Part shown: piece after piece, positions 175-61,600 of the stretch
Numbering within the stretch: position 1 is the stretch's first letter
Layout of the letters: the number at the start of each line of letters is the position of its first letter
Made by a program: the position numbers and the translations under genes
Notes under the pieces: model-generated
What the model saw: the letters and a program-made list of their open reading frames with translations, nothing else
Databases searched by the model: none
What the model was told of the DNA's origin: nothing
Assembly (NCBI GenBank): GCA_945865725.1
Contig: CAMBEO010000005.1
Span: 1-63,146, forward strand
DNA length: 63,146 nucleotides
Direction of reading: 5' to 3'
DNA from: Thermoflexus hugenholtzii JAD2
Lineage (GTDB): Bacteria > Chloroflexota > UBA11872 > UBA12225

Positions 175-301
175 GGTGCTTCCCTCTCCCGCCGCAGCGG
201 GGGAGGGATTGAGGGTGGGGGCCGTCCTGCCTCCCTCTCCCGCCGCCGCGCGGGGCGCTTGCGGCCAATGGAAGGGGGCGTCCTTCTCCCCGCGCCCGGG
301 G
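175..301 (+). repeat. hairpin-repeat mosaic: A module + B module + CGTCCTTCTCCCCGCGCCCGGGG tail
   Basis: GGTGCTTCCCTCTCCCGCCGCAGCGGGGGAGGGATTGAGGGTGGGGG, then CTCCCTCTCCCGCCGCCGCGCGGGGCGCTTGCGGCCAATGGAAGGGGG. Lies in the pccB / biotin carboxylase spacer. Confidence 0.9.
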
Positions 302-331
302 AACCCGGTGGTACCGCCATCGCCGCCAGGG

Positions 332-1912
332 CTACAAGGGGATGTTCCCGTGCTTTCGCGCCGGGTTGGTCACGCGCTTGCTCCTCAAGATCCCGAGCCC
401 GGCGATGAGCTTGCGTCGGGTCTCGTGCGGCTCGATCACGTCGTCAACGTAGCCACGCGCCGCCGCGGCGTACGGGTTGGCGAACCGGTCGCGGTACTCG
501 GCGACGAGCCGCGCGCGTTCCGCCACCACGTCGGCAGATGCGGCCAGCTGGTCGCGAAAGATCAGCGGGACCGCCCCCTCGGCACCCATCACGGCGATCT
601 CGGCCCAGGGCCACGCGAAGTTCAGGTCGCCCCTGATGTGCTTCGACGACATCACGTCGTACGCGCCGCCGTACGCCTTGCGGGTGATGACGGTCAACTT
701 GGGGACGGTGGCCTCGCAGTACGCGTACAGGAGCTTCGCCCCGTGGCGGATGATCCCGCCGTGCTCCTGGGTGACGCCGGGAAGGAACCCGGGGACGTCG
801 ACGAAGGTGATGATCGGTAGGTTGAAGCAGTCGCAGAACCGGACGAAGCGCGCGGCCTTGACGCTCGCGTCGATGTCGAGAACGCCAGCGAGGGCGGCCG
901 GCTGCTGCGCGACGACGCCGACGGGGCGCCCGCCGAGGCGTCCGAAGGCGGTAATGATGTTCGGCGCGAAGAGCGGTTGCACCTCGAGGATCGATCGCCG
1001 GTCGAGGACGTGCCCGAGGACGGCCTTCATGTCGTAGGGCACGTTCGGGTCGCGCGGGACGATCGTGTCCAGTGCCGGGTCGGCGCGCGAGGCCGGGTCG
1101 TCGCACGGGACCACGGGTGGGTCGTCGAGGTGGTTGGAGGGGAGGTAGGCCAGGACCTCGCGGACGAGGGCAAGGCACTCCGGCTCGGAAGCGGTGATGA
1201 AGTGCGCGACGCCGCTGGTCGTGGCGTGAACCCCCGCACCGCCGAGGCCGTCCGCATCGACCGTCTCGTGGGTGACCGCCTTCACGACGTTCGGGCCGGT
1301 GACGAACATGTACGAGGTGCGGTCGACCATGGCCACGAGGTCGGTCATCGCGGGGGAGTAAACGGCGCCGCCAGCGCATGGCCCGAGGATGGCGGAGATC
1401 TGCGGGACGACGCCCGAGGCCATCACGTTTCGCAAGAAGATCTCGGCATACCCGCCGAGGGCGGCGACCCCGCCCTGGATGCGCGCGCCCCCGGAGTCGT
1501 TGAGGCCGATGATCGGCGCACCGCCTTGCACGGCGAGGTCCATCACCCTGCAGACCTTCTCCGCGAACGCTTCCGAGAGGGACCCGCCAAGGACGGTGAA
1601 GTCCTGGGAGAAGGCGAAGACGGTGCGACCGTCGATCCGCCCCCATCCGGTGACGACGCCGTCGCCGAGGATGGGCTCGTGCTCGAAGCCGGATTCGCTG
1701 GATCGATGGGTGACCAGCATGCCGGTCTCCTCGAAGGAGCCGGGGTCGAGGAGGAGGTCAAGGCGCTCGCGCGCGGTGAGCTTGCCGCGGGCGTGTTGCT
1801 GGGCGATCCGTGCCGTGCCGCCGCCGAGTCGGGCGCGGGCTTTCATCGCGCGCAACTCGGCGACACGCGGGTCGATGACCGGCGTCTCGTCTTCGCCATT
1901 CGTCTCAGGCAC
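332..1912 (-). CDS. pccB: propionyl-CoA carboxylase beta chain / acyl-CoA carboxyltransferase
   Basis: From ORF 332..2104. Carboxyltransferase motifs are present: [46 protein letters not shown] trimmed the start to the in-frame GTG at 1912 ([21 protein letters not shown]), giving about 526 aa. The start is uncertain. Confidence 0.9.
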
Positions 1913-2256: not shown

Positions 2257-4038
2257 ATGATCGGGGCGATGGCCACGCGTGCAATGCGCCGGACCCCGGG
2301 TGACGGGCCGTCCTGCGCCGCGCGGCGGGCCGTCGTCGCCATCTTGCTCGCGTTCGTCGCGATCGCGGCGACGGTCGGCCCATCGTTCGCCCAAGGGGTG
2401 CCAGCGACCCGGTTCGACGGATGGGAGGACTGGGAGACCCTCAACGGCGCCTTTTTCACCCAAGGGGTGGCAGGCGACGACCCGACGCAGGGCTTCGCCG
2501 TGACCGACGAGGGCGGGAAGGCGTTCTGGCGCGATTACACCGCACTTGGCGGTCGCCGATCGCTTGGCGCTCCGATCTCCCGGCGGTTCGAGGCCGATGG
2601 CTTCGTGGTGCAGGTGATGCAGCGCGCGGTGATGCAGTGGCACCCCGAGATCGGCGGGGCGGTCCTGGCGAACGTGTTCGACGACCTCTCGGCGGCGGGA
2701 CGCAACGAGTGGTTGCGTACGACGCGCGGAATCCCGCCACCGCTGGAGCTGCCCGAGGACGAGGGTGCGACGGCGCAGGACCTTTGGCAACGCCGCTTGC
2801 GGTGGCTGGACGGTTACCCGGCGCTACGCGCCGCCTACTTGAACGACGCGGACCCCCTCGAGGCGAGCGGCCTGCCGATGGCGCCCGTCTTCGACAACGG
2901 GCAAGCCCTCGTCCTGCGCACGCAGCGGCGGGTGTTCATGCAGTGGAAGGTGACGGCCCGGTTCGTCAGGGCCGGGCAAGTCTCGCTGGTGAACGGCGGC
3001 GAGGTCGCCCGCCAGGCCGGCATCTACCCGGAAGAGGCGTTCGCTCCAGACGATGCCGCTCGTCACGTCGCGGTGCCGCTGCGTCACGGACCGAGCGCGA
3101 CCGAGGCGACGGTAGACGCATGGCGCGCGGCGTTCGACCGCGTACGCCCGTCGATCGTCGAGGTCACCGATGGCAAGTCCGGTCGGGGCACGGGCGTCGT
3201 GCTCGGGGTCGATGCCTTGGGCGCGATCATCGTGACAAACAACCACGTCGTCGAGGCGGTCGATCGCGGGCGGCTCGTCGGTCGGCTTGCCGACGGGCGC
3301 GAGGCGCCTGCGGTCGTGGTAGGCAGGGATGATTGGACCGATATCGCCGTCGTGCGCCTGCCAGGGGTGTTTGACGTGCCGGCCCTGACCCGTGGGGCGC
3401 CGGTCGCACCGGGCGTGACCGTCATGGCCGTCGGGTTCGGCGCGCTCTTCCCCTCGATGCCCTCGGCGAAAGTGGGCACGGTGCGCGGCCTTGGCGGTGC
3501 GATCCAGACGTTGCGCGACTACCCGCTATCTGGCCTCATCGAACACGACGTCCTGCTGTCGCCCGGCGACTCGGGCGGACCACTCGTAACCATGGAGGGG
3601 GAGGTCGTCGGCATCGACTGCGCGATCAAGGTGACGCGCGTCCCGAGGCGCGGGCAGGAGATGACGGGGTACTCGATCCCGATCGGGCAGGCGTGGGGGA
3701 TCGCATCGCAGTTGCAGCAGGCGGGCCGCTTGGACCGGCCCGCGCTTGGCGTGGAAATCATCGACCTCGACCCGTTCACCGCGATCTCGCTGGGGTTGCC
3801 GGTCGCGAACGGCGCCCTCGCGCGCGGCGTCCCCGAGGGGGGGCCAGCGGCGATTGCCGGGATCGTGCCCGGGATGGCGATCGTCGGGTTTGATCGAAAG
3901 GCGGTCGCGTCGGTGACCGACCTCCGGCGCCTGATGGTCACGAAGGTGATCGGCGACGTGGTGCAAGTCACGGTCGTCATGCGTGGGGGTGCCCGGCAAA
4001 CCGTGGCCGTGACGTTGGCGGAGCGATCCGGCACTTGA
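2257..4038 (+). CDS. secreted/membrane-anchored HtrA-like S1C serine protease with C-terminal PDZ and an N-terminal LGFP-like repeat region
   Basis: Catalytic triad contexts are TNNHVVEAV (His), DIAVVRL (Asp) and GDSGGPLV (Ser). There is a PDZ-like C-terminus and an N-terminal hydrophobic segment (AVVAILLAFVAIAATVG). Three ATGs within the first 10 codons leave the start ambiguous. Confidence 0.8.
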   Translation: MIGAMATRAMRRTPGDGPSCAARRAVVAILLAFVAIAATVGPSFAQGVPATRFDGWEDWETLNGAFFTQGVAGDDPTQGFAVTDEGGKAFWRDYTALGGRRSLGAPISRRFEADGFVVQVMQRAVMQWHPEIGGAVLANVFDDLSAAGRNEWLRTTRGIPPPLELPEDEGATAQDLWQRRLRWLDGYPALRAAYLNDADPLEASGLPMAPVFDNGQALVLRTQRRVFMQWKVTARFVRAGQVSLVNGGEVARQAGIYPEEAFAPDDAARHVAVPLRHGPSATEATVDAWRAAFDRVRPSIVEVTDGKSGRGTGVVLGVDALGAIIVTNNHVVEAVDRGRLVGRLADGREAPAVVVGRDDWTDIAVVRLPGVFDVPALTRGAPVAPGVTVMAVGFGALFPSMPSAKVGTVRGLGGAIQTLRDYPLSGLIEHDVLLSPGDSGGPLVTMEGEVVGIDCAIKVTRVPRRGQEMTGYSIPIGQAWGIASQLQQAGRLDRPALGVEIIDLDPFTAISLGLPVANGALARGVPEGGPAAIAGIVPGMAIVGFDRKAVASVTDLRRLMVTKVIGDVVQVTVVMRGGARQTVAVTLAERSGT

Positions 4039-4121
4039 CCGTTTTATCGGAGCACTTGCGGTGGGACACTCATCGGAGGGCGGTGGGACCCGCGGGTTAC
4101 CATGAGGAAAAGGACGCCCAG

Positions 4122-4700
4122 ATGACGATCACGACCCTCCTGCAGGGCGCCGGCGAACAGAAGCGCGGGCGCCGTGCAGGCCTTGCCTTGCTTGGCGGGA
4201 TCTCGCTCGCCGCATGCGACGCCTCCAGCATGGGTACCGGGAACGCCACGCCAGTCCCGTTCCCGTCGCCGGTCGCGACGACCCGGGTGGCAACGATCGA
4301 GCTTGACAAGGGCGGGACCATCCAGATCGCCCTCTTCGGCAGCGACGCGAGCCAGACGGTGAAGAACTTCGAGACCAAGGCGACCCAGGGCTTCTACAAC
4401 GGATTGAAGTTCCACCGCGTTGAAGACTGGGTCGTGCAGGGCGGGGATCCGAGCGGCAACGGCACCGGTGGGGGCCAGATGCCGAGCGAGTACAACAAGC
4501 GCGAGTTCAAGGTTGGTTCGGTCGGGATCGCGCGCGGCCAGGACCCGCGCATCAACAACGACGCGCAGTTCTTCATCGTCAAGAGGGACTCGCCCCACTT
4601 GAACGGCAACTACACGAACTTTGGGCAGGTCACGTCCGGCCTCGAGCTAGTCGTCAAGATCGCGATCGGCGACAAGATCAAGAAGATCAGCGTGGCGTGA
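4122..4700 (+). CDS. cyclophilin-type peptidyl-prolyl cis-trans isomerase, probable lipoprotein
   Basis: FHRVEDWVVQGGDPSGNGTGGG cyclophilin core. Lipobox LAAC in LALLGGISLAACD. Start set at the ATG at 4122, preceded by AGGAAAAGGA; the ORF track begins at 4035. Confidence 0.88.
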   Translation: MTITTLLQGAGEQKRGRRAGLALLGGISLAACDASSMGTGNATPVPFPSPVATTRVATIELDKGGTIQIALFGSDASQTVKNFETKATQGFYNGLKFHRVEDWVVQGGDPSGNGTGGGQMPSEYNKREFKVGSVGIARGQDPRINNDAQFFIVKRDSPHLNGNYTNFGQVTSGLELVVKIAIGDKIKKISVA

Positions 4701-6327: not shown

Positions 6328-6439
6328 CTAGCTACCGATTGCGCTGGCATCCAGCCACCCAGTGCGCGCCGGTATCGCCCTTAACGGCACGTCGTCCGTC
6401 AACTAGCTACCGATTGCGCTGGCATCCAGCCACCCAGTG
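6328..6439 (+). repeat. perfect 37-bp direct repeat (6328-6364 and 6403-6439) separated by a unique 38-bp spacer
   Basis: CTAGCTACCGATTGCGCTGGCATCCAGCCACCCAGTG occurs twice. It contains the internal hairpin GCTGG-CAT-CCAGC. Lies between the mutase stop and the epimerase::MeaB start. Confidence 0.95.
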
Positions 6440-6478
6440 GGGGCGTTGGGTCGGCCTCGCCGGTTCCGGGCGACCGAC

Positions 6479-7963
6479 GTGATCCTCGGGATCGACCACG
6501 TCGGGATCGCGGTCGGCGATGCCACGGCCGCGGTCGACCTCCTTGCCGACCTCGTCGATCGGCCGGGGACCGAAATCGAGGAGGTCGGTGGCCAGGCGGT
6601 TCGCGTCGCGTTCGTGCCGGCGAACTGGCCCACGGTTGGCGCGCGCCTTGAGGTGCTCTCCCCGACGGACCCGTCGGGAGCGGTCGCACGATTTCTCGAA
6701 CGCCGGGGCGAAGGCCTCCATCACGTCTGCTTCCTGGTCGACAACCTCGAGGCCGAGGTCGCGCGCCTCGCACCGCGCTTTGCCTTGGTCGATGCGGCGC
6801 CCCGTCGGGGCCATGGCGGGCGCGTCGTGTTCCTTCACCCGAAAGCCGTGCACGGGGTCATGGTCGAGCTGCTCGAACGCGACGAGCCGCCGGTGGAGGA
6901 CCCTCATCATCCGCATGCGCGCCCCCCAGCTGAAAGCTCTCACGGGAGGAGGGGGGGAGAAGGGGAGGCGGACCTCGCCCGGGCGCGCGACTTGATCGAA
7001 CGGGCGAGGGGTGGTGACCGTCGTGCCCTCGCGCGCGCCCTCTCGGCGGTCGAGGCCGGCGGTGCGCCGGGGTGCGCCGTCGTCGCCGCGGCGGCCGGGA
7101 TACGCGCCGCAACCGCCTCGGTTGTCGGCATCACCGGTGCCCCGGGTTCGGGGAAGTCAACCCTCGTCGGCGCCCTCGCCCGTGCGTGGCGCGCGGCCGA
7201 CCCGGACGGCCCGGTCGCGATCCTTGCCGTCGACCCGAGTAGCCCGGTGAGCGGTGGCGCCTTGCTTGGTGATCGGATCCGGATGGAGTCCATTGCCGGC
7301 GACCCAGGCACGTACGTGCGGAGCGTCGCCGGACGGGGCGCGGGAGACGGCCTCGCTGACGCTGTCGGCGACATGCTCTCGGTGTTGCGGGTGGCGGGGT
7401 TCGGGACCATCCTCCTGGAGACGGTCGGCACGGGCCAGGATGCCTTCGCGGTGGAAAGTCTTGTCGACGTGACGGTGGTCGTGCATGCTCCCGGCCTCGG
7501 TGACGCGATCCAAGGGTTGAAGGCGGGCTTGGTCGACCTGGCCGACGTGATCGTGGTGAACAAGGCCGACCTTGACGGCGCGGCGGCGTTGGCGTCGGCC
7601 CTCAAGTTCGGACGCGGTGATGATCCCGCGTGCCTGGTCCTCGAGACGGTCGCGACGACCGGGGCGGGGGTGTCAGACGTACGCGGGAAGATCATGGAGG
7701 CCCTCGGGCGTCCGCATGACCTTGGTGCACGGGCCCGCCGGGCGATTGCGCGGGCGGCCGTCGCGATGACGCGGGCACGGGTGGCCGAGGCGCTCCGACT
7801 GGACGACCCGACAGGTGGCGCCGTCGCTGGGGTTGTCGCGGGACGCTTGTCACCGGCCGACGCGGCCTGTGCGATCCTGTACGCATCCGGGGCGCGCGGC
7901 GTGTCGGGGCAGGATGCCCCTGCCGGTCCGGGCGCACGAGATGGCGGGGGCCGAGGGCGATGA
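6479..7963 (+). CDS. fusion protein: methylmalonyl-CoA epimerase (VOC/glyoxalase fold) plus MeaB/ArgK-type G3E GTPase (mutase chaperone)
   Basis: N-terminal part: GIDHVGIAVGD, LHHVCFLVDN, VFLHPK. C-terminal part: GITGAPGSGKSTLV (P-loop), GDRIRM, LETVGTGQ, VVNKADL. There is one uninterrupted frame from 6437. The start is probably the GTG at 6479. Confidence 0.8.
   Translation: MILGIDHVGIAVGDATAAVDLLADLVDRPGTEIEEVGGQAVRVAFVPANWPTVGARLEVLSPTDPSGAVARFLERRGEGLHHVCFLVDNLEAEVARLAPRFALVDAAPRRGHGGRVVFLHPKAVHGVMVELLERDEPPVEDPHHPHARPPAESSHGRRGGEGEADLARARDLIERARGGDRRALARALSAVEAGGAPGCAVVAAAAGIRAATASVVGITGAPGSGKSTLVGALARAWRAADPDGPVAILAVDPSSPVSGGALLGDRIRMESIAGDPGTYVRSVAGRGAGDGLADAVGDMLSVLRVAGFGTILLETVGTGQDAFAVESLVDVTVVVHAPGLGDAIQGLKAGLVDLADVIVVNKADLDGAAALASALKFGRGDDPACLVLETVATTGAGVSDVRGKIMEALGRPHDLGARARRAIARAAVAMTRARVAEALRLDDPTGGAVAGVVAGRLSPADAACAILYASGARGVSGQDAPAGPGARDGGGRGR
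6901..6968 (-). repeat. hairpin-repeat module (F/C-type, reverse orientation) embedded in-frame in the epimerase::MeaB ORF
   Basis: CCCTCATCATCCGCATGCGCGCCCCCCAGCTGAAAGCTCTCACGGGAGGAGGGGGGGAGAAGGGGAGG aligns by eye at roughly three-quarters identity to the reverse complement of the intergenic copy at 53900-53960. Confidence 0.75.
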
Positions 7964-8922: not shown

Positions 8923-8930
8923 GGAAGCCG

Positions 8931-9030
8931 CCCCCGCCTGAAAACTCCCGTGCCCGGCGGGAGAGGTGGGAGACGGGACGCCCCCTCCCTCAATCCCTCC
9001 CCCGCTGCGGCGGGAGAGGGAAGCACCACC
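8931..9030 (-). repeat. hairpin-repeat mosaic (F-like + A module, reverse orientation)
   Basis: ...CTGAAAACTCCCGTGCCCGGCGGGAGAGG... followed by CCCCCTCCCTCAATCCCTCCCCCGCTGCGGCGGGAGAGGGAAGCACCACC. Confidence 0.9.
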
Positions 9031-12036: not shown

Positions 12037-12136
12037 GGGTGGTGCGGGAAGGTCCGCGGGCGTCCATTACCGACCCCGCGTTGGGGAATCGGGTCGTTCG
12101 GGAAGGGCCGTGGGCGTCCTTGCCCGTTCCGGTGGG
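12037..12136 (+). repeat. two D-type modules in the gcvH-gcvPA spacer
   Basis: GGTGGTGCGGGAAGGTCCGCGGGCGTCC and GGGAAGGGCCGTGGGCGTCCTTGCCCGTTCCGG resemble the D core GGTCCGCGGGCATCCYTGCCCGCC. Confidence 0.7.
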
Positions 12137-18621: not shown

Positions 18622-18970
18622 ACGGGAGCGGAGGTGCGGGCACGGGAGCGGAGGTGCGGGCGGGGTGGTGCTTCCCTCTCCCGCCGCAGCGGGGGAGGGA
18701 CTGAGGGTGGGACTTGTTAGCGGTATATCAGGCGCATCATATACCGGCCTCTCCCGCCGCAGCGGGGGAGGGACTGAGGGTGGGGGCGTCTCCCCCTCTC
18801 CCGCCGCCTTCACTGGGAGCGTTCCCCTCCGCGTCCCGCCGGCCGTCATTCCCTCTCCCGCCGCAGCGTTGAGGCGCTTGCGGCAGATGGAGGGGGCAGC
18901 GCTTCCCCCTCCCGCCGCAGCGTTGAGGCGCTTGCGGCAGATGGAGGGGGTCGTCTCCTCGCCCCGGGCC
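18622..18970 (+). repeat. repeat array: 2 x 20-bp tandem, A, AT-rich palindrome island, A, degenerate unit, 2 x B-variant
   Basis: ACGGGAGCGGAGGTGCGGGC x2; A modules at 18664 and 18748; GGTATAT-N10-ATATACC at 18721-18744; CCCTCTCCCGCCGCAGCGTTGAGGCGCTTGCGGCAGATGGAGGGGG x2 (57-bp period). Confidence 0.9.
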
Positions 18971-18980
18971 ACGGGCGGCG

Positions 18981-20363
18981 CTACTCGGAAAGGCGTTGCG
19001 GTGCCAAGGACTCGAGCAACTCGACGGCGAGAGCCGCTTGCGGTGACTCGGGGGACAGGTCGATCACGCGCCCCAAGGAGACGCGGGCGGCGTCAGGCTG
19101 GTTGAACAGCACGGCGTACCGGCCCATGACGAGGCAGGCGTGCGGGGAGTCTCCGTCGATCGTGACGGCGGCGCGGGCGGCCGGCAGCCCGCGATGGGCG
19201 ACGCTAACTGCCTGGGCAGGATCGACGGACCGGATGACTTGCGACGAGTCGAGGAATGCCGTGGCAAGCTGCACGAGGGCGTGGATGCTCAGGGGTTCCG
19301 CCTCGACCCACTGGCGCGCGACCTGGACCAGGAGGTGCAGGATGGCGAGGGTGCGTGGCGCGTCCCGGGCCTCCCGCGCCTGTTCGGCCGCGTCGACGAG
19401 CCAACCGCAGCCGAACTGGAGGAAGCGGACGGCGGCCGCGGGGTTCCATACGACGCCGTCGGGCGGCGAACCGCCGGGCATGGGCGCGGGCGCCGTGGCG
19501 GCGACTAGGGTGATCCCTTGCAGGGCGGAGGTGGGCAGCCCGAGGCCGTCGCCATCAGTCGCGACGACCGGAAGCCAATCGGGCAGCGGCCACCCGTAGA
19601 GTTCCTCGGTGGCCTCGACCTCGGCGCGCGAGACCCAGGAAATGGGCGGGGTCGACATGCGCTCAGCGTCGGTTTCCGCGTCTTCCGCCTGATCCGTCTC
19701 GGCCATCGTTGCCGAAGCGTCCGCGCCGTCGGCGTCAGGGTTGCCCGCGGCGCTGGCGCGCACGATCGCGGCGAGGGCCTCGCACGCGAGCGCACGGCGA
19801 CGGTCGTCGGCCTCGCAGACGAGGATGCCGTCAAGGTTGACCCCCGGCGCGAGGTGGTCGAACAAGGCGCGCGCGAATGCGGCCGCCATGACGGGCGGCG
19901 GCTCGGTCGCGGTGCCCGGGCGCAGGCCCATCAGCGACATTGACAAGGCCCGTGCCTCCATGTCGAGGCCCATCGCGATGGCGTTGCGCACCGCGGCGTA
20001 CACGGTCTGGGGCGTCGCGGGGACGCGTCCCTCGAAGGAACCGCGGCGCGGGTAGAGGCTTGTGACGACGTGGATGACGGCTTGGCGGGCGTCGTCGTCC
20101 GCGAGGCCGTGGCCCCGCGCGGGCACGGCCGCACCGGGTGGGACCCCCTCGTCGGGCGTGGCTGCGATGACGGCGCGCAGGTCAGCGGCGTAGGCATCGC
20201 CCGCGCGGGTCATCACCTCGCTGGCGACGCTTCCCGGCTCCGGCTGCAACCAGTTGTTCGAGGCGACGACGATCGCCGGGGTCGGTGCGTCGAGCAGGCC
20301 AAGGGAGAGGACGGCGACGGTCGTGCCGCCAATCCGAAACACGGCGTCGGGTGCCATAGCCAT
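18981..20363 (-). CDS. macro-domain-like protein with acidic linker and an uncharacterised C-terminal domain
   Basis: The N-terminal ~210 aa resemble a macro domain: AIVVASNNWLQPEPGSVA fits N-x6-G-[GS]-V, and ALSMSLMGLRPG matches the second loop. The ATG at 20363 is preceded by GAAGGA. The C-terminal ~200 aa belong to no family I recognise. Confidence 0.55.
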   Translation of the reverse strand: MAMAPDAVFRIGGTTVAVLSLGLLDAPTPAIVVASNNWLQPEPGSVASEVMTRAGDAYAADLRAVIAATPDEGVPPGAAVPARGHGLADDDARQAVIHVVTSLYPRRGSFEGRVPATPQTVYAAVRNAIAMGLDMEARALSMSLMGLRPGTATEPPPVMAAAFARALFDHLAPGVNLDGILVCEADDRRRALACEALAAIVRASAAGNPDADGADASATMAETDQAEDAETDAERMSTPPISWVSRAEVEATEELYGWPLPDWLPVVATDGDGLGLPTSALQGITLVAATAPAPMPGGSPPDGVVWNPAAAVRFLQFGCGWLVDAAEQAREARDAPRTLAILHLLVQVARQWVEAEPLSIHALVQLATAFLDSSQVIRSVDPAQAVSVAHRGLPAARAAVTIDGDSPHACLVMGRYAVLFNQPDAARVSLGRVIDLSPESPQAALAVELLESLAPQRLSE

Positions 20364-21508: not shown

Positions 21509-21605
21509 ACCCCCTCCCCCAATGCCACTCGTCCGCTTCGCGGGAGACGGGAGACAGGTCCGCGGGCATCCCTGCCGGCCGGGGTGGGGTCCGGGTCTCC
21601 CTCGA
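21509..21605 (+). repeat. hairpin-repeat mosaic (E-like + D module)
   Basis: CCCCTCCCCCAATGCC...CGCTTCGCGGGAGACGGGAG, then CAGGTCCGCGGGCATCCCTGCCGGCCGGGGTGGGG. Confidence 0.75.
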
Positions 21606-27485: not shown

Positions 27486-27520
27486 ACGTGCCTGCTCCCG
27501 TGCTGCCCCGGCAATCGCGT

Positions 27521-35653: not shown

Positions 35654-35660
35654 CGGCGGG

Positions 35661-37162: not shown

Positions 37163-37200
37163 AGGCCGGCCGGGTCCGCAGCCCGCACGTCACCCAACAT

Positions 37201-37489: not shown

Positions 37490-37557
37490 GGATCACTTCA
37501 ATGACGGGACCCCGGCTGGCCACGCGAACGGGCGTCGTGCGGCGGTGCGACGCGATG

Positions 37558-40178: not shown

Positions 40179-41363
40179 ATGGGCGGGGCAGCCACGAAGC
40201 GGGTCACTGGCTATTACGACCGGGCGGTCGCGTCTGGCGAACGGTGGGGCGCTTTCGTCCCGTTCGACCTGCCTCCGTTCGACCCGCCGCTGGCCGTGTC
40301 GGCCGAGGCGGTCGCCCGGGCCGAGTCCGCCTTGGCGCGCCTGCGCGACGCGTCGCCGCTCGTCCCCTCGGTCGACTGGTTCACCTTTGCCTTGGCGCAG
40401 AAGGAAGCGGTCCTTACCTCGCAGCTCGAGGGCACGCGTGCGACGATGGGCGACGTACTCGACTGGAGGGCGCGGTCCGGCGGGGGCGTGGGCGTCGGGC
40501 CGTCCGGAGACGTCGCGGAGGTCGCCAACTACACCGAGGCGATGGCGTACGCGTTTGACCAAATCGCGTCGCCGGCTGGCCTGCCGATCTCGTCCCGCCT
40601 GCTGGATGGGGCGCACCGAATCCTCCTTCAGGGAATGCGCTCGGCGGACCGCCTTCCCGGCGAGGCGAGGCGGTCGCAGAACTGGATCGGCGGCACCCGC
40701 CCGGGAAATGCCACGTACGTGCCTCCACCGCATGCCGAGGTCGCGCGACTGCTTTCGGCCCTGTTCGGGTACGTCCACCGCGGCGATGGCGCCCATTCCC
40801 CGGTCGTCCGCACGGGCCTCGTCCACGCCCAGTTCGAGATGATCCACCCGTATCTCGACGGTAACGGCAGGATCGGGCGGCTCCTTGTAGCGCTGCTCCT
40901 GGCACACTGGGGCCTCCTCGAACGGCCAGTGTTGTATGTCAGTCTGGCGCTGAAACGACGGCGCCGCGAGTACTACGACCGCTTAGCAGACATCCCAGCG
41001 CGCGGCGACTGGGAGGGGTGGATCGGGTTCTTCCTCGATGCGATCGCGGAGGCATCGGACCAAACGGTGTCCGACATCCACGCCCTCGCGCGAAGCGTCG
41101 AGTCGGACCGTCGGAGCATCATCGACCTTCCGGACGTGACGGTGGCGGCGATCCGGTTGTTCGAGTTACTGCCGCGCTACCCGGTAGTCTCCGTGGCGAC
41201 GGTTGCGCACCAGCTTGGGCTGTCGAAACCGACGGCGACGCGCGCGATCGAGACGGTCGTGCGCGCGGGTGTGCTGACCGAACAAACTGGGCGGGCACGG
41301 GGGCGCCAATGGGCGTACGGGGCATACCTCGCCACGCTCGTAGCCGAGACGGAACTGCCGTAG
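40179..41363 (+). CDS. Fic family protein (class II, N-terminal inhibitory helix) with C-terminal winged-helix domain
   Basis: Fic motif HPYLDGNGRIGRLL. Inhibitory motif TSQLEG, matching [ST]xxxE[GN]. C-terminal wHTH-like segment VATVAHQLGLSKPTATRAIE. Confidence 0.9.
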   Translation: MGGAATKRVTGYYDRAVASGERWGAFVPFDLPPFDPPLAVSAEAVARAESALARLRDASPLVPSVDWFTFALAQKEAVLTSQLEGTRATMGDVLDWRARSGGGVGVGPSGDVAEVANYTEAMAYAFDQIASPAGLPISSRLLDGAHRILLQGMRSADRLPGEARRSQNWIGGTRPGNATYVPPPHAEVARLLSALFGYVHRGDGAHSPVVRTGLVHAQFEMIHPYLDGNGRIGRLLVALLLAHWGLLERPVLYVSLALKRRRREYYDRLADIPARGDWEGWIGFFLDAIAEASDQTVSDIHALARSVESDRRSIIDLPDVTVAAIRLFELLPRYPVVSVATVAHQLGLSKPTATRAIETVVRAGVLTEQTGRARGRQWAYGAYLATLVAETELP

Positions 41364-41427: not shown

Positions 41428-41500
41428 TCCATCTGCCGCACTCGCCCCACGCTGCGGCGGGAGGGGGAGGCACCACCCCCTCCCACGCTGTGGCGCGAAC
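41428..41500 (-). repeat. hairpin-repeat module (B-variant, reverse orientation)
   Basis: CCATCTGCCGCACTCGCCCCACGCTGCGGCGGGAGGGGGAGGCACCACC resembles the reverse complement of the 18846-type unit. Confidence 0.75.
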
Positions 41501-44500: not shown

Positions 44501-44741
44501 GGCGCGCCTCGAGGAGGGTGACCGCCTGGTCCGGCGAGGCCTCGTCTCGGAGTCGCTGCGCCTGATCGTGGCTGGGGCAGGGCCGGAGACGACATCGACT
44601 GACGCGGCGGTCGCCGGAGCGCTCGCTGCCGCCGAGCGCGCCGCGCCGGCCCGTGAGAAGCCGCGCCGACGCCGTGTCGCGACGCTGCGACGAACGCCCC
44701 CTCCCCCAGCCCCTCCCCCGCTTCGCGGGAGAGGGGAGTAG
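41538..44741 (+). CDS. Ski2/HelY-like DEAD/DEAH-box (DExH) helicase
   Basis: AAPTGTGKT (motif I), IFDEVHFL (II), LSATISN (III), HHAGVLP, QLAGRAGRRG (VI). ATG at 41538. The last ~15 codons and the stop lie in a repeat module. Confidence 0.85.
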   Translation: MVTTQTEGGPEADATLPRVPRPTPEVAAAVAAFAARYPFPLDVFQVEAAHALEAGRSVLVAAPTGTGKTVVADYGVELARRLGMRAIYTAPIKALSNQKFHDWRAVHGDDVGLLTGDVSENPDGSVLVMTTEVLRNMLLRGGDALRDTAVVIFDEVHFLADPERGTTWEEAILSCPPHVRLVCLSATISNAPEIARWIGRVHREVTLVEHPVRAVPIDHLYLHDGALWPLVDADGTRHQPSRTGGELRVPRPVGVTRGARPNDPPHPRDVLGILGSHGMLPVIWFQFGRRACEVAASACLQPGGRGGVPVDFGGDREMHRRRTERVAATLAVLRPEDRALQQVQEIVRLVDHGLAFHHAGVLPVLKQLVEGLFTDGLLAAVFATETLALGVNMPARSVVVTEHTKYDGTSRRVLLPNEYQQLAGRAGRRGMDARGFAVNLESPWTTCAEVQDIATAPLFPVRSAFTARYHTVASLWDGTVRGRDRLERLFSSSLRQFQTDDALRAVVDEVEELRTEVRARHYTCPVDGVADDAVVEYGAWRRDLAEARRQVVRGRTALAGAARDAGHLPWTPPAPGMVKRAMGAFTGGEVVHLSDWRAGTDVAVSAAGPGAWAVFLRREGTGPGVFLVGEEVVPVPQWAMITRLGPPRGGTTRIAVPAALRDALVGDPVDAYEASLRAGVSGRLVALDLPDASRHEANREARQAALEARLLTPHLEREASLATGLVAHACHACTYRATHERAWKHEREAQVSLQAAEAEASSVERLAATQATRTLDAIVGVLGEFGVLTPTRDGLAAPTDMAIALTSIYDPTGLLLLNAARRGWFDQLNPADMMEVVSWFCFDRDTVRWNRFRVSTLVREVRDRLSELSQALADAEEHADLPPTSGPSVVLEGPVTAWCRGATFADLLDGIGVAEGDLLQVLNKTLDLASQLREGARAMGMGEAGDTGHPAPRIVNRGRARRSDASYAREPGETSAGDPGQPAGQSLVARLEEGDRLVRRGLVSESLRLIVAGAGPETTSTDAAVAGALAAAERAAPAREKPRRRRVATLRRTPPPPAPPPLRGRGE

Positions 44742-44796
44742 CGCCCGCCTTCTGCCGCAAGCGCCCCGCGCTTCTCCGGAGAGGGGAGTAGTGCCC
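44696..44796 (-). repeat. two E-type hairpin modules overlapping the helicase 3' end
   Basis: CCCCTCCCCCGCTTCGCGGGAGAGGGGAGTAGCGCCC and GCCGCAAGCGCCCCGCGCTTCTCCGGAGAGGGGAGTAGTGCCC. The helicase TAG (44739-44741) lies within the first unit. Confidence 0.8.
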
Positions 44797-44804
44797 TTGA
44801 TCGA

Positions 44805-50975: not shown

Positions 50976-51022
50976 CCCAGGCGGGCAGGGATGCCCGCGG
51001 ACCGGTCCCCGCCCCGGCAGGG
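50976..51022 (-). repeat. D module (reverse orientation)
   Basis: GGCGGGCAGGGATGCCCGCGGACC is the reverse complement of the D core. Confidence 0.85.
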
Positions 51023-53898: not shown

Positions 53899-53962
53899 TC
53901 CTTCCCCCCTCTCCCCCTGTGAGAGTTTTCAGCAGGGGGCGCGTACGCGGATAACGAGGGTC
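53899..53962 (+). repeat. F/C-type hairpin module
   Basis: CCTTCCCCCCTCTCCCCCTGTGAGAGTTTTCAGCAGGGGGCGCGTACGCGGATAACGAGGG. Confidence 0.9.
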
Positions 53963-56962: not shown

Positions 56963-57036
56963 TCCGGAAGGGCAGGTCCGCGGGCATCCTTGCCCGCCCC
57001 TCGTAGCACCCCTGACGCTGCACGGGGGAGGGGAGA
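56963..57036 (+). repeat. D module + hairpin module in the rpmB / DAK2 divergent spacer
   Basis: GGCAGGTCCGCGGGCATCCTTGCCCGCCCC, then CCCCTGACGCTGCACGGGGGAGGGGAG. Confidence 0.8.
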
Positions 57037-58846: not shown

Positions 58847-61447
58847 GTGGGCGGCTCGAACGGCCCCGAGGCGCGCGCGCGAAGGATCCTCGAGTTCGAG
58901 CGGTCGCTCGGCCACAACAACCGGGCGGTCGTCGGAGGCATCGCGGCGTTCGCGGGACGCGTCGACGGGACGTGGGGCCCGTGGGGCGAGGCGGTCCAGG
59001 CGGCGCTTGCGGGCTACGCCGCGAAGACGCCGTCGGCGCGGGAGCGGGCCATCGCGACCGCCCTTGACGCGATCGGGTCCGCGGCACCGGACGTTCGAGA
59101 CGCTCCCCCGCGGGCGGCACGTGGACGCCCGGTCCCCTTACGCGGGGAAGCCACTTCGAGTGAACCGGGTCCGCCACCCGGCCGCGAGGCGTCGCCAGGC
59201 GGTGCGCCTGTGCCCGGCACTGGCGCTCGTGGCGCGACAAGCGCCCCCACCCTCAGTCCCTCCCCCGCTGCGGCGGGAGAGGGAAGCCCCGCCCCGCCCT
59301 CCCGAGGTCCTTCAGGCGCGCGATCGCTCCCGCGACGCCAGGCGACCGGTACCGCCGCACCCGACCCGGCGGTCACGGTAGTCCGAATCGAGTCCGCACG
59401 CCCGTCCGACCCGGTTTCCATCCTGCCGGAGGTCGGCGCGCGTGCCCTCGCCGCCTTCGCCAAGCTCGGCATCGCGACGCTCGAGGACCTTGCGTTTCAC
59501 CTGCCCCGGCGCCATGTCGACCGTCGCAGCGTGACGCGCATCGCCGATCTCGTGCCGGGACAGGTGGCGAACGTCCTCGTGACCGTCGCGTCGGTGAGCC
59601 GGAAGCCGACGTCACGACGGGGCCTGACGGTCACGCAAGCCATCATCCGCGACGACTCCGGGCATGCGCAGGCGACGTGGTTCAACCAGGCGTACCTGCT
59701 GCGACGCCTCGGGCTTCCGGGGACCGTACTGATCAGCGGTCGCCCTGAGCTGACACCCGGCGGCGCCCTCCAGTTCACGTCGCCAGACTTCGAGTTCGAC
59801 GTCGCCGAGTCGCTCCACGCCGGGCGCCTGGTCCCCTTCTACGCGAAGTCGGAAGGCCTCACCGACAAGGCGATCCGGACCGCAGTTCGGCAGGTTCTCG
59901 ACCTCGTCGGCGACCGGTGGGTCGACTTGGCGCCCCCAGAGGTACGGCGCTCCGAGGGGCTGCCTTGCGTGGCGGAGGCCCTCGCGGTGGCGCACTTCCC
60001 GGTGGCGGTCGAGGACCTCGCGGAGGCCGTGCGGCGCCTCGCGTTCGACGAGCTGCTGGGGATCCAGGTGTGGGTCCTGCAGCGGCGATACCAGCGGCAG
60101 ACGGAACGGCCGGGCGTTGCCTTGGAGGCACCGGATGGGACGCTCGAGGAGTTCGAGGCGCAGCTCCCGTTTCGACTGACCGGGGCACAGCGCCGGGCAA
60201 TCGCGGAGATTGCCGCCGACATTCGTCGGCCGGTGGCGATGGGCCGGCTGTTGCAGGGCGAGGTGGGATCCGGCAAGACGGCGGTCGCGGCGGCGGCGTG
60301 CCTGATGACGGTGCGTGCCGGGCACCAGGTCGCGTTCATGGCGCCGACGGACATCCTGGCGCAGCAGCACGAGCGTGGTCTTGTCGCCGTGCTCGCGCCG
60401 CTCGGCGTGCGCGTCGCGCGCGTGACCGGGAGCCAGCGCCCGCGCGAGAAGCGTCAGGCCTGGCTTGCCGTCGAGATGGGGTTGATCGACGTCCTCGTCG
60501 GCACCCATGCCCTGATCGAGGACGCCGGCAGGTTTGCGCGCCTCGGCTTGGCAATCGTCGACGAGCAGCATCGGTTCGGCGTCCGCCAACGGCAGGCGCT
60601 GGTGGGCAAGGGCACGAACCCGCACATGCTGGCGATGACGGCGACGCCGATCCCGCGAACCCTTGCCCTTTCCGTGTTCGGTGACCTGGAACTGTCGATC
60701 CTCGACGAGTTGCCACCGGGGAGGCTGCCGATCCGCACGATCATGGTCCGTCCGGAGCGCCGTGGCGAGGCGTACGAATACGTCCGCACGCAGGTCAAGA
60801 CCGGGCGCCAGGCCTTCGTGATCTTCCCGCTGGTCGAGGAGTCCGAACGGGTCGAGGCGCGCGCGGCGACGGTGGAGTTCGAGCGCCTGCGCCGCCAGTT
60901 CCCCGACTTGCGGCTGGCGCTCGTGCATGGACGCCTGTCCCCGCGTGACAAGGACGACGTGATGGCGCGCTTCCGAGACGGGCAGTGCGACGTGCTCGTG
61001 GCGACCGCGGTCGTGGAGGTCGGGATCGACGTCCCGAATGCGTCGGTGATCCTGATCGAGGGTGCGGACCGTTTCGGCCTGGCGCAACTGCACCAGTTCC
61101 GTGGGCGCGTCGGGCGTGGGCCCCACGCAAGCTCGTGCCTGCTGTTGACGGAGAGTGACTCGGAGGCGACGCTCAGCCGCCTGCGGGCGCTCGAACGGAC
61201 GTCGGATGGTTTCGTGCTCGCCGAGGAGGACCTCCGGATGCGGGGGCCAGGCCAGTTTTTCGGGACGCGACAGAGTGGCCTGCCGGACTTGCGGGTGGCC
61301 AGCTACGGGGATCGCGAGACGCTCGTGCGCGCGCGCCACCAGGCGGGGGCACTGCTCGCGTCCGACCCGGCGCTGACCTTGCCGGAACACGCGGCGCTCG
61401 GCGCGAGGGTGTCCGCGAACGAGGCGAAGTCGATGGGAGCCGGATGA
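58847..61447 (+). CDS. recG: ATP-dependent DNA helicase RecG with N-terminal helical extension
   Basis: GSGKTAVAA, DEQHRFG, MTATPIPRT, TAVVEVGIDVPNA, QLHQFRGRVGRG. The GTG at 58847 sits 1 nt after the DAK2 stop. The only other in-frame start codon I see downstream is the GTG at ~59209, which is still upstream of the embedded repeat. Confidence 0.88.
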   Translation: MGGSNGPEARARRILEFERSLGHNNRAVVGGIAAFAGRVDGTWGPWGEAVQAALAGYAAKTPSARERAIATALDAIGSAAPDVRDAPPRAARGRPVPLRGEATSSEPGPPPGREASPGGAPVPGTGARGATSAPTLSPSPAAAGEGSPAPPSRGPSGARSLPRRQATGTAAPDPAVTVVRIESARPSDPVSILPEVGARALAAFAKLGIATLEDLAFHLPRRHVDRRSVTRIADLVPGQVANVLVTVASVSRKPTSRRGLTVTQAIIRDDSGHAQATWFNQAYLLRRLGLPGTVLISGRPELTPGGALQFTSPDFEFDVAESLHAGRLVPFYAKSEGLTDKAIRTAVRQVLDLVGDRWVDLAPPEVRRSEGLPCVAEALAVAHFPVAVEDLAEAVRRLAFDELLGIQVWVLQRRYQRQTERPGVALEAPDGTLEEFEAQLPFRLTGAQRRAIAEIAADIRRPVAMGRLLQGEVGSGKTAVAAAACLMTVRAGHQVAFMAPTDILAQQHERGLVAVLAPLGVRVARVTGSQRPREKRQAWLAVEMGLIDVLVGTHALIEDAGRFARLGLAIVDEQHRFGVRQRQALVGKGTNPHMLAMTATPIPRTLALSVFGDLELSILDELPPGRLPIRTIMVRPERRGEAYEYVRTQVKTGRQAFVIFPLVEESERVEARAATVEFERLRRQFPDLRLALVHGRLSPRDKDDVMARFRDGQCDVLVATAVVEVGIDVPNASVILIEGADRFGLAQLHQFRGRVGRGPHASSCLLLTESDSEATLSRLRALERTSDGFVLAEEDLRMRGPGQFFGTRQSGLPDLRVASYGDRETLVRARHQAGALLASDPALTLPEHAALGARVSANEAKSMGAG
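59244..59287 (-). repeat. A module (reverse orientation) embedded in-frame in recG
   Basis: CCCCCACCCTCAGTCCCTCCCCCGCTGCGGCGGGAGAGGGAAGC is 44/44 identical to the intergenic copy at 24400-24443. Confidence 0.95.
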
Positions 61448-61477
61448 CCCTTTCCCGCCCTCGTGCCCGTTGCCTCA

Positions 61478-61600
61478 CCCCCATGCCCCCTCTCCTCCGG
61501 AATGGCCCCCCTCCATCGGCCGCAACAGGCACCCCCCAGCGCTGCGCGGACCCGGGAGAGCACCACCGCCCGAGGGGCGCGCATGCGCATAACGATGGGA
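61478..61600 (-). repeat. degenerate B-type module plus palindrome/ATAACGATGG module upstream of rsmD
   Basis: CCCCCCTCCATCGGCCGCAACAGGCACCCCCCAGCGCTGCGCGGACCCGGGAGAGCACCACC, then GCGCATGCGCATAACGATGGGAG. Confidence 0.7.

Follow-up and report, generated by a model that had tools for sequence, protein, structure and literature searches.

BoxC/PIT/TMECO elements of Escherichia coli are reportedly treated in earlier work by Bachellier and by Hoyne and Maher (in 2000), and we know of no case in which BoxC/TMECO elements have been tied to a transposase, a point that counts against the reading we favour below. In E. coli, TMECO has been described as an intrastrand triplex motif (Holder et al., 2015; PMC4666352), and the BoxC/PIT/TMECO motif is also covered by Kaplan et al. 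(2016; PMC5100583). A second group of short repeats comprises the GTAG- and CGTC-tagged REP superfamilies (Di Nocera et al., 2013; PMC3733652). In REP clusters and BIMEs orientation typically alternates, and the GTAG-23 REPs of Thermomicrobium roseum, which are nested in small palindromes, provide a precedent for nesting (PMC3733652).

Here we describe hairpin repeats that crowd the intergenic spacers of a 63,146-nt stretch of DNA (the window). The analysis confirmed that they are real; they are a variant, specific to this lineage, of repeat types already described in E. coli and other bacteria. Under our preferred reading, to which we give a probability of roughly 0.65, the repeats form a BIME-like mosaic on the chromosome of an uncultured freshwater Chloroflexota bacterium: they are small hairpins that neither code for protein nor move autonomously, and they combine two element classes, a REP (module D) and a BoxC/TMECO-type palindrome (module A).

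Abundance and architecture of the repeats

Copies were located by BLAST of module consensus sequences together with a repeat search. About 40 units of five modules (A, B, C, D and F) were found in 19 of the 34 window spacers of at least 40 nt, close to the 17 or so spacers proposed in a sequence-only reading, all of whose listed copies were recovered within a few bases. Family segments sum to ~2.3 kb by self-BLAST, or ~2.5 kb with F, degenerate D and palindrome-only copies added, in agreement with the 2.6 kb (4%) tallied earlier by hand; the units make up ~4% of the window and about one third of its non-coding DNA. Occupied spacers are co-directional (11), divergent (5) or convergent (3) and hold units in both orientations, as that reading had claimed. 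The units are listed below (window coordinates, strand, description, basis).

175–221 (+): module A, triple-block (C-block, G-block 1, G-block 2); 97.9% to consensus, fits the relaxed TMECO pattern
229–278 (+): module B, forming an A-CCGTCCTG-B dimer with the preceding A; whole dimer again in contig L097 at 94% identity
2117–2178 (−): module C (A hairpin, palindrome CGCGTACGCG, tail GATGACGATGG); 88.7% over 62 nt
6895–6957 (−): module F with palindrome tail, in-frame linker of an epimerase-MeaB fused ORF; consensus BLAST, F-loop search
8929–8975 (−): F-like hairpin followed by TTTT; consensus BLAST, F-loop search
8981–9027 (−): module A; 95.7%
12051–12130 (+): two degenerate D-like hairpins (12051–12076, 12105–12130); 81% identity to reference D
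18667–18786 (+): two A units (18667–18711, 18748–18786); 100% over 45 and 39 nt
18849–18982 (+): two short B units (18849–18896, 18902–18950) with a shared 3′ extension, CGTCTCCTCGCCCCGGGC..., also found after the B unit at 27691–27722; BLAST to consensus
21530–21582 (+): module D (21557–21580, 1 mismatch) with an upstream C/G-rich hairpin; D 24-mer search
24400–24446 (−): module A; 100% over 47 nt
24450–24510 (+): head-D-tail, in which a C-rich head and an inverted canonical head enclose D; D 24-mer search; Logan contigs L081 and L082 terminate within it
27520–27560 (+): variant triple-block unit CCCCCTCTCC...GGAGAGGGGG...GGTGAGGG; sequence reading
27563–27621 (+): head-D-tail nested hairpin; DNA fold −20.6 kcal/mol, z = −4.2
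27623–27690 (+): long module B; 98.5% over 68 nt
33099–33554 (+): seven-unit head-to-tail array C-C-C-A-C-B-F/C, filling the spacer between the InhA-like and GH3 genes, its ends 10 nt past the stop codon on one side and 2 nt short of the start codon on the other; BLAST, repeat search
35658–35835 (+): mixed cluster of a lone palindrome, an A(−)/C(+) pair on one hairpin, A(+) and F-like(+); consensus BLAST
37201–37489 (−): three tandem B units, 66-nt period, within a 41-nt direct repeat CCCGGAGCGGGCAAGGTCTTTCACCCGCGAGACCAGACCCC; repeat search
41428–41474 (−): diverged short B between Fic and helicase genes; 88%
44697–44800 (−): A-like and B-like units, the A-like one giving the helicase gene's last ~15 codons and stop; BLAST, relaxed TMECO
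50980–51003 (−): module D, exact 24-mer; D 24-mer search
53901–53960 (+): module F with palindrome tail (reference copy); BLAST, F-loop search
56975–56998 (+): module D, exact 24-mer; D 24-mer search
59244–59287 (−): module A, within the RecG ORF's N-terminal extension or upstream of it; 100% over 44 nt
61572–61599 (+): degenerate palindrome tail (CGCGCATGCGCATAACGATGG), providing a GGGAG 9 nt ahead of the start of RsmD; repeat search

Every module core is far above chance. The shared C-rich head CTTCCCTCTCCC, with one mismatch allowed, has 22 matches in the window against 0.38 expected; at up to three mismatches the D 24-mer has five, CGCGTACGCGGATAACGATGG nine and the B core nine, and the F loop GRGAGYTTTSAR has five, the chance expectation for each of these other cores being 0.00–0.02. 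All modules follow one plan, in which a variable inner hairpin is enclosed by the C-rich head paired with a G-rich tail, and they have discrete boundaries in common (GGTG...GGGGG(C)CGTC). Folding of B, D and F gave head–tail pairing around the inner hairpin; the DNA fold z-score is −2.3 in A, −3.8 in short B and −4.2 in head-D-tail. The earlier REP/BIME-like interpretation is thus supported: the hairpins are nested, short and rich in GC, have ends in common and occur in all three kinds of spacer. Pfam detected no transposase, RAYT or integrase among the 50 window ORFs, and tblastn with two RAYT proteins gave no match in the window, in line with what had been noted by eye. Target-site duplications were not seen at the units.

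Module A, the triple-block hairpin

Module A occurs at 175, 8981, 18667, 18748, 24400, 33302, 35678 (half unit), 35743 and 59244, with weaker copies at 44697 and 27520. Its C-block CCCTCTCCC pairs with the G-block GGGGGAGGG and is followed by a second, mirror-symmetric G-block, GGGTGGGGG, on which basis A can be classed as a BoxC/TMECO-type triple-block palindrome. With relaxed loop lengths, the published TMECO blocks (PMC4666352) match seven window loci against 0 expected, while the strict published pattern has no match in the window. The G-rich strand of A could in principle also adopt an intrastrand triplex or a G-quadruplex. The suggestion that the family was not a described one holds in so far as Rfam returned no match; it does not hold for the BoxC/PIT/TMECO architecture of A (PMC4666352, PMC5100583), nor for REPs nested in small palindromes, already reported from T. 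roseum, a member of the Chloroflexi (PMC3733652).

In relatives, A takes the form CCCCTCTCCCGTCGCAACGGGGGAGGGG-CTA/CCG-GGGGTGGGGG, with a compensatory change from C:G to T:A at one loop-proximal pair compared with the window. An identical 26-nt A hairpin is also found in unrelated metagenomic and viral contigs, so the high identity of copies cannot be read as recent transposition.

Module D and its link to a RAYT

The 24-nt module D (GGTCC-GCGGGCA-TCCY-TGCCCGC-C) is a classical REP. Copies lie at 21557, 24462, 27581, 50980 and 56975; two further copies, at 12051 and 12105, have degenerated and match the reference copy at 81% identity. In GTDB representative genomes the exact 24-mer was matched at 35 loci, of which at least 32 belong to Chloroflexota MAGs, with flanks that all differ, and related freshwater Chloroflexota MAGs carry D dispersed. 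The RAYT search suggested earlier was productive in a related genome, LaPlata bin-061, where a 202-aa ORF (locus L129) is a RAYT by NCBIfam NF047646 (90.7 bits, cut-off 80) and scores 30 bits for Pfam Y1_Tnp (cut-off 23). This gene lies between inverted D copies at 238–261(+) and 1001–1024(−), and an A-type hairpin is present at 168–200 of the locus. By analogy, D is probably RAYT-mobilised in the window genome as well. Two observations count against this part of the preferred reading: no RAYT or other transposase of the window organism was found in ~83 kb (window, 14 kb of flanks and L097), and D is without the canonical GTAG tag, its window copies being singletons rather than inverted REPIN doublets.

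Dispersal and lineage specificity

The family is dispersed rather than window-confined, for it is also carried by L097, a separate contig of the ENA assembly whose 123-kb contig holds the window locus. There, A+B and A+C dimers occur in three spacers with unit boundaries identical to those of the window. Units are lacking from the flanks of the window (5.3 kb upstream, 9 kb downstream), so their density is uneven. In a syntenic relative (L104–L106) gene order is kept and the InhA-like protein has 64% amino-acid identity, and the repeat family is absent from the orthologous spacers.

Module B was found at 232, 18849, 18902, 27623, 33415, 37238/37324/37390 and 41428 (partial copy at 44751), C at 2117, 33099, 33155, 33235, 33348 and 35691, and F, the loosest of the module families, at 6895, 8929, 33496, 35790 and 53901. 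All three were found only in the window organism; 256 kb of loci from relatives contain none of them, which, together with the unit-free spacers of the syntenic relative, supports a lineage-specific expansion. The histories of the five modules thus differ, the A hairpin and D being clade-wide.

Window sequences recur in independent ENA and Logan assemblies at 99.5–100% identity. Short-read contigs break exactly at units, which we count as a sign of multi-copy status. The one presence/absence difference among assemblies concerns bases 37242–37448 (the B array), missing from a single MEGAHIT-style (k141) contig of one assembly; in three other assemblies the filled allele is present and contigs break inside the array, so the gap could stem from the assembler skipping a loop.

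Proposed origin of the mosaic

Under the preferred reading, the D hairpin, in single-stranded DNA, would be the substrate of a REP-associated tyrosine (HUH/Y1) transposase whose gene lies elsewhere in the genome and which would move D in trans, by analogy with known RAYT/REP systems. B, C and F resemble A-type hairpins in which the loop is larger, and we infer that the modules other than A and D arose by such loop enlargement: head-D-tail units would hold the D REP inside the loop, B a second hairpin, and C and F the CGCGTACGCG palindrome with GATAACGATGG. Head-to-tail growth of the arrays would reflect two processes: repeated insertion beside units already in place, and tandem duplication or slippage, the latter supported by the 66-nt tandem array of three B units. 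Effects on genes would be by-products; they include SD-like GGGAG/GGAGG stretches ahead of start codons, ends made of a hairpin and a T-tract, and in-frame linkers free of stops.

Alternative explanations

A possible, if doubtful, alternative is that the units are selected structural DNA motifs, the G-rich strand forming an intrastrand purine-motif triplex or a G-quadruplex/hairpin switch with a role in replication, supercoiling or nucleoid-protein binding, and that they spread by recombination, gene conversion or slippage instead of transposition. This would fit the three mirror-symmetric blocks kept in A, the conservation of the 26-nt A hairpin across unrelated lineages, the slippage suggested by the tandem B array and the sequence GGGGGAGGGACTGAGGGTGGGGG, which reads as a canonical four-tract G4 motif. 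The TMECO element adopts a triplex in vitro and is a marker of unstable loci (PMC4666352), and a G4–hairpin switch has been proposed for the same motif (PMC5100583). Further, G-block 1 GGGGGAGGG of the window clade goes with G-block 2 GGGTGGGGG, block 1 GGGAGAGGG of E. coli and environmental copies goes with block 2 GGGTGAGGG, and the positions changed between these states are those that would lie in one triad. However, this covariation is based on two sequence states only, B and F are without a second G-block (in C it lies ~20 nt away), and shared discrete boundaries and whole dimers at unlinked loci fit element-like movement better.

An RNA-level role as terminators, 3′-end stabilisers or intercistronic processing/attenuation signals, as proposed for E. 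coli REPs, appears unlikely. The RNA hairpins are stable (−25 to −40 kcal/mol), 11 of the 19 occupied spacers are co-directional, and F units consist of a hairpin then TTTT, those at 53901 and 8929 lying in sense orientation after an ABC ATPase gene and gcvP2, respectively. Nevertheless, orientation to transcription is mixed (in co-directional spacers ~5–6 antisense and 2 sense), five of the occupied spacers are divergent, no U-tract is present in A, B, C or D, and a terminator scan of 33000–38000 flagged no unit. Arrays of up to seven units also exceed the need, and RNA fold z-scores of A, C and long B are unremarkable (−0.8 to −1.6).

That the palindrome CGCGTACGCG with GATAACGATGG is a regulator's operator or promoter element, the remainder being incidental, is very improbable: the perfect 10-nt palindrome has nine copies, of which those at 53940, 61578 and 2123 sit 10–40 nt upstream of start codons, but five of the nine lie in one array downstream of and antisense to a gene, one lies within an ORF, the motif is missing from 256 kb of related genomes, orthologous promoters included, and promoter calling gave no sigma-70-like promoter. 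That the repeats are an artefact of assembly or of a chimera, as contig breaks at units and one array varying between assemblies might suggest, is scarcely credible, given that at least six ENA and Logan assemblies, all independent, have the same units at the same positions.

Comparison with known systems

Read as a BIME-like mosaic, the family has likenesses to several systems. It resembles MITEs and Rickettsia palindromic elements (RPEs) in its short units with complementary ends, variable interior and occasional in-frame ORF insertion (the epimerase-MeaB linker in the window, an ABC–ABC fusion in L097), although its units are much shorter (45–70 nt), show no target-site duplications and have no known cognate DDE transposase.

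Module A is like BoxC/PIT/TMECO in its block order (CCCTCTCCC, GGGNGAGGG, mirror G-block) and in being intergenic, without strand bias, sometimes paired and with no transposase nearby, and environmental copies (CTTCCCTCTCCCGCCGCAGCGGGAGAGGGTCAGGGTGAGGG) bridge it and the E. coli TMECO forms. It differs from strict TMECO in loop 1 (8 nt vs 3–6), loop 2 (5 nt vs 3), G-block 2 (GGGTGGGGG) and host, a Chloroflexota, whereas the strict pattern is reported only from Proteobacteria. Three further contrasts with TMECO are the derivative modules B, C and F, the arrays in which up to seven units follow one another head to tail, and the nested REP.

Similarly, D shares with REP/RAYT systems (REPtrons, REPINs) a 24-nt GC-rich imperfect palindrome that is multi-copy, intergenic and conserved across the clade, with inverted copies flanking a RAYT gene in a relative. 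Its 5′ tag, GGTCC, is neither GTAG nor CGTC, and, unlike in those systems, the window copies are singletons and the ~83 kb searched of the window organism holds no RAYT. Although (C)CGTC follows roughly half of the A, B and C units, the stems of these units are unlike CGTC-family stems. Compared with E. coli BIMEs, the motif sequences are unrelated and A, B and C units are mostly head-to-tail, which counts against the preferred reading; as in BIMEs, however, an intergenic REP is combined with other conserved short motifs in limited arrangements, and composite dimers are found again at unlinked loci.

Distribution of the repeat units

The hairpin repeats occur in the window far more often than expected. 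The shared C-rich head CTTCCCTCTCCC has 22 matches at <=1 mismatch against 0.38 expected, and the module D 24-mer, the CGCGTACGCGGATAACGATGG tail, the B core and the F loop have 5-9 matches each against 0.00-0.02 expected. Every copy listed in the sequence-only reading was recovered by a repeat search and blastn-short with module consensus sequences, and the same searches yielded three additional features:

44697-44800, an A-like plus a B-like unit
27520-27560, a variant triple-block unit
2072-2095, a B-core remnant

Family segments delimited by self-BLAST amount to ~2.3 kb, or ~2.5 kb once F, degenerate D and palindrome-only copies are added, which agrees with the earlier hand estimate of ~4% of the window. 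Core units account for ~1.9 kb of the ~6.3 kb of intergenic DNA.

The window has a G+C content of 71% and an ordinary chromosomal gene content, including propionyl-CoA carboxylase subunits, methylmalonyl-CoA mutase, the glycine cleavage system, phosphofructokinase, RecG, RlmN and ribosomal protein L28. On a gene map combining Pfam hits with gene calls attached to other assemblies, 19 of the 34 spacers of >=40 nt are occupied (11 co-directional, 5 divergent and 3 convergent), and the reported presence in all three spacer types and in both unit orientations is borne out. Antisense units are somewhat commoner than sense units in co-directional spacers, a difference that is not significant. The absence of mobile-element genes noted earlier also holds, with no transposase, integrase or RAYT (REP-associated tyrosine transposase) among 50 Pfam-scanned ORFs and no RAYT found in the window by tblastn with two RAYT proteins.

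Anatomy and folding of the modules

All modules share a common plan, in which the C-rich head (GGTG)CTTCCCTCTCCC is paired with a G-rich block. The 5' ends of A, B and C read GG(T/C)GGTG and are set apart from the stem, and about half of the units (~12 of 22, read from the sequence of the window and of L097, a second contig of the same ENA assembly) have (C)CGTC after the G-rich tail. Module A consists of the head, the loop CGCA with two extra G:C pairs, GCGGGGGAGGGA, ACTGA and a second G-block, GGGTGGGGG. In module C, the ACTGA loop is swapped for ~20 nt carrying the palindrome CGCGTACGCG and GATAACGAT. Module B encloses an inner hairpin, GCCGCAGCGC-GGG-GCGCTTGCGGC, by pairing of the head with a distal GGAGGGGG, and the head-D-tail units (27563-27621 and 24450-24510) have D as their inner hairpin. 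Module F is a hairpin containing the head, with TTTT(C/G)A after it and often the same palindrome tail. The nested stems are supported by DNA folds of head-D-tail (-20.6 kcal/mol, z = -4.2), short B (-16.2 kcal/mol, z = -3.8) and A, C and F (z about -2).

Units are joined head to tail. In the extreme case, at 33099-33554, seven units span a whole spacer, from 10 nt past one stop codon to 2 nt ahead of the next start codon. Slippage has visibly contributed to local growth in the 66-nt tandem B array. Two start codons lie close to repeat sequence: the G-rich arm of a unit (GGGAGAGGG) is 2-3 nt ahead of that of GH3 (33094-33125), and a degenerate tail (GATGGGAG) is 9 nt ahead of that of RsmD (61595-61610). 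The repeats may thus be a source of Shine-Dalgarno-like sequences for both genes.

Module D as a REP

Our knowledge of REP/RAYT biology rests almost wholly on Proteobacteria. Module D is present in the window in five copies with <=1 mismatch, and GTDB representative genomes contain its exact 24-mer at 35 loci, of which at least 32 belong to Chloroflexota MAGs (LaPlata bin-061, a Lake Biwa "TK10" MAG, UBA2235, Baikal and others), with different flanking sequence at each copy. A locus of LaPlata bin-061, a related freshwater Chloroflexota MAG (L129), contains a 202-aa ORF that matches the NCBIfam model for REP-associated tyrosine transposases (NF047646, 90.7 bits against a cut-off of 80) and Pfam Y1_Tnp (30 bits against a cut-off of 23), and carries HUH (NHVHVVV) and YVHANPV motifs. 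Inverted D copies surround it at 238-261(+) and 1001-1024(-), 105 nt beyond the stop codon and 27 nt ahead of the start codon, and an A-type hairpin lies just outside. This layout is the canonical RAYT/REP arrangement. The sequence-only reading had proposed looking for a RAYT elsewhere in the genome; a D-flanked one was found in this relative, and none in the ~83 kb reachable for this organism.

D resembles the REPs of REPtrons in being a short (20-40 nt), imperfect, multi-copy and mostly extragenic palindrome. However, it lacks a GT(A/G)G foot tetranucleotide, beginning instead with GGTCC after variable upstream bases, and inverted doublets (REPINs) do not predominate, D in the window being a singleton or nested in head/tail stems. 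D is a REP, very probably moved by a RAYT through its hairpin in single-stranded DNA, a mobilisation drawn from established knowledge of RAYT/REP systems, with the D-RAYT linkage coming from the relative L129 only. In a further locus (L136, 773-1139), D and D-like units stand in tandem with a period of ~34-35 nt; this contig is binned as Verrucomicrobia, comes from the lake shared with LaPlata bin-061 and may be mis-binned.

Module A as a BoxC-type palindrome

BoxC-type elements have been orphan repeats since the 1990s. They are widespread, and to our knowledge neither a function nor a means of spread has been established for them.

Searching full texts for the block sequences turned up two descriptions of TMECO, the E. 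coli triplex motif earlier named BoxC or PIT element. It is defined as CCCTCNCCC-N3-6-GGGNGAGGG-N3-GGGNGAGGG, is intergenic without strand bias or linked mobile genes, adopts a triplex structure in vitro and has been linked to instability of its loci (Holder et al., 2015, PMC4666352); the motif has also been interpreted as a G-quadruplex/hairpin switch (Kaplan et al., 2016, PMC5100583). Module A has the identical block order (C-block, complementary G-block and second, mirror G-block, with short loops), and the units here are likewise intergenic, without strand bias and without mobile-element genes alongside. However, module A fails the strict published pattern, which has 0 matches in the window, and needs longer loops and a free block-2 position. 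With the pattern relaxed in this way (loop 1, 3-8 nt; loop 2, 3-5 nt; GGGNGNGGG), there are 8 matches, spread over 7 loci, where 0.00 are expected.

Environmental single copies of CTTCCCTCTCCCGCCGCAGCGGGAGAGGGTCAGGGTGAGGG join the head and loop of the window to the blocks of E. coli, and three viral contigs carry the identical 26-nt hairpin followed by TTA-GGGGTGGGGG; the palindrome tail has 0 matches in viral contigs. In D-bearing relatives, A-type triple-block units have 3-nt second loops (CTA or CCG) and a compensatory change from C:G to T:A beside the loop. Module A is a BoxC-type palindrome. The blocks covary, in that G at position 4 of block 1, the state of the window's clade, goes with G at the mirror position 6 of block 2, and A in block 1 goes with A in block 2. 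This pattern would fit a triplex, on the basis of only two sequence states. Triplex or G4 formation is a potential of the module A sequence, and the ViennaRNA folds used here model neither structure.

Dispersal, strains and relatives

The locus lies on a 123-kb ENA contig (ERZ27280310 k141_385980), reached by exact-protein look-ups, whose overlap with the window is 99.7-99.8% identical. A six-frame concatenate of repeat-encoded peptides gave one useful match, protein P0001, which led to L097, a separate 5-kb contig of that assembly with ABC ATPase and GH32 genes. A 96-aa repeat-encoded peptide used as a query gave no matches, nor did phmmer with such peptides against 1.8 billion representative proteins. 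L097 carries A+C-like, A+B and A-like units across three spacers, and the A-CCGTCCTG-B dimer of the window (172-278) recurs there at 94% identity, with homology that begins and stops at the unit ends. The family is therefore dispersed beyond the window. Unit density is uneven, with none in the 5.3 kb that precede the window or the 9 kb that follow it. Short-read contigs break off exactly at units, as expected of multi-copy sequence. The exact module A 30-mer has 0 matches in GTDB representative genomes, and a 21-mer of head and loop occurs only as single copies in unrelated MAGs, JGI metagenomes and the three viral contigs, which implies that the organism itself is absent from those collections.

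Bases 37242-37448, within the B array, are missing from one assembly, where a flanking 41-nt direct repeat is single and the surrounding 22 kb are 100% identical. Because three other assemblies have the filled allele, each broken inside the array, we downgrade this indel to a possible polymorphism; the empty allele could be an assembler artefact. Elsewhere, ~40 of the 45 SNPs between the window and the 123-kb contig (over 16 kb) fall in a 750-nt tract at 3707-4460, covering the HtrA C-terminus and the PPIase N-terminus, which suggests recombination between strains.

The InhA-like protein is only ~64% identical to its nearest homologues. The contigs of these homologues, from a syntenic relative (L104-L106), have the same gene order as the window, and the family is missing from the orthologous spacers, which hold only two lone triple-block-like hairpins and an unrelated local repeat. 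In 256 kb of the relatives' loci there is no B, F, palindrome tail or window-type A tail, and B, C and F appear to be lineage-specific modular derivatives. The divergent ROK-PFK spacer of the relative contains a four-copy repeat of its own, CGCAGTAGCTTGCG(G/C)CCCCGT (L104 17692-18121), where the window instead holds A2, head-D-tail and B units. Between its helicase and DUF711 genes, the window has a Fic/DOC-family gene (40179-41363) that is missing from L104, where these neighbours are adjacent and divergent; it looks like a gain by insertion in the window's lineage or a loss in the other.

Repeats and gene models

Some units are read into ORFs. A single unbroken ORF at 6437-7963 (+), present in five assemblies, encodes both methylmalonyl-CoA epimerase (Glyoxalase_4, aa 20-132) and MeaB (aa 198-445), and part of its linker comes from an F unit (6895-6957) that lies antisense and is read in frame; this 60-nt unit has 3 SNPs in two strains, two of them non-synonymous. 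P0001 (688 aa, L097 1007-3073) similarly joins two complete ABC ATPase genes in one called ORF through an A unit and a C-like unit (1995-2110) read in frame. The reverse complement of A is stop-free in all three frames, so that units can merge neighbouring gene models. The called ATG of an HNH endonuclease (50991) falls in the D hairpin loop (GGGATGCCC) at 50980-51003, and its true start is uncertain. The units break short-read assemblies, lead to ORF calls that are too long and to fused gene models, and may supply SD-like sequences, so that annotators should mask them in these MAGs.

Two other repeats are distinct observations. A 37-nt direct repeat (CTAGCTACCGATTGCGCTGGCATCCAGCCACCCAGTG; 6328-6364 and 6403-6439, period 75 nt) between the mutase and epimerase genes is single in strain L152 (ERZ27265269) and unrelated to the hairpin family. 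From 62808-63146 into the continuation of the window's 3' end (L098, ~11743), an 18-nt tandem repeat encodes (EARLAE)n within a 447-aa ORF that has no Pfam match and inside which the window ends; its copies vary among assemblies.

Origin of the family and alternative explanations

The best-supported reading is a BIME-like (bacterial interspersed mosaic element) mosaic of two non-autonomous element types, one of BoxC/TMECO type and one of RAYT type. A RAYT would act on the D hairpin in single-stranded DNA, and D would come to be seated in the loop of an A-type hairpin, as in head-D-tail. By extension, B, C and F would be A hairpins carrying other inserts, and arrays would grow locally by slippage. 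We think it improbable that the two types are functionally coupled, with the A loop as a preferred REP landing site or the RAYT also mobilising A, B and C. If true, such coupling would provide the first mobilisation mechanism for BoxC-type elements and explain the diversification of one hairpin into a modular family.

A purely structural role in DNA, as triplex or G4, is compatible with module A and is not exclusive of mobility. A role at the RNA level, as terminator or stabiliser, fits two F copies, but the mixture of orientations, the occupied divergent spacers and the lack of U-tracts speak against it as a general role. The palindrome is unlikely to be an operator, since it is found in arrays and relatives lack it. 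An assembly artefact is excluded; the same locus is found in several other ENA and Logan assemblies.

Other repeat classes were also considered. A CRISPR array was ruled out by inter-hairpin sequences that are themselves repeated and by the lack of cas genes among the window ORFs, and generic intrinsic terminators by orientation and missing U-tracts; riboswitch or sRNA and coding-repeat readings were rejected. Rfam gave 0 hits at the gathering threshold and only two spurious miRNA hairpin matches at E<=1.

Significance and comparison with known systems

BoxC/TMECO-type and REP-type elements co-occur, physically nested, in a poorly sampled Chloroflexota lineage, where one of the two has recently diversified into several modules. 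This offers a natural system for studying palindrome multiplication, RAYT use of palindrome loops and the DNA-structure basis of triple-block symmetry.

MITEs have terminal inverted repeats and target-site duplications (TSDs). The units here have a complementary head and tail, and no short TSDs were found around solitary units in the window, the sole flanking direct repeat being the 41 nt at one array. CGTC-tagged REPs have an unpaired CGTC tag, an 8-9 bp stem beginning AT, a 4-5 nt loop and a CCA tail (PMC3733652); despite the (C)CGTC after the tail, the units here differ in stem composition and tag polarity. The nesting of head-D-tail is the same arrangement as in Thermomicrobium roseum, whose GTAG-23 REPs sit inside small palindromes (Di Nocera et al., PMC3733652). 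As in BIMEs, REP-type D and other conserved motifs are clustered in recurrent intergenic arrangements (head-D-tail then B at 27563-27690, for example), which supports the REP/BIME-like mosaic first read from the sequence. Unlike in BIMEs, successive palindromic units do not alternate, with seven in the same orientation at 33099-33554 and three at 37238-37436, and the arrays are unusually head-to-tail. The kinds of component are thus known already; what is new is the combination of BoxC/TMECO- and RAYT-type elements, the lineage-specific B, C and F modules and the head-to-tail arrays.
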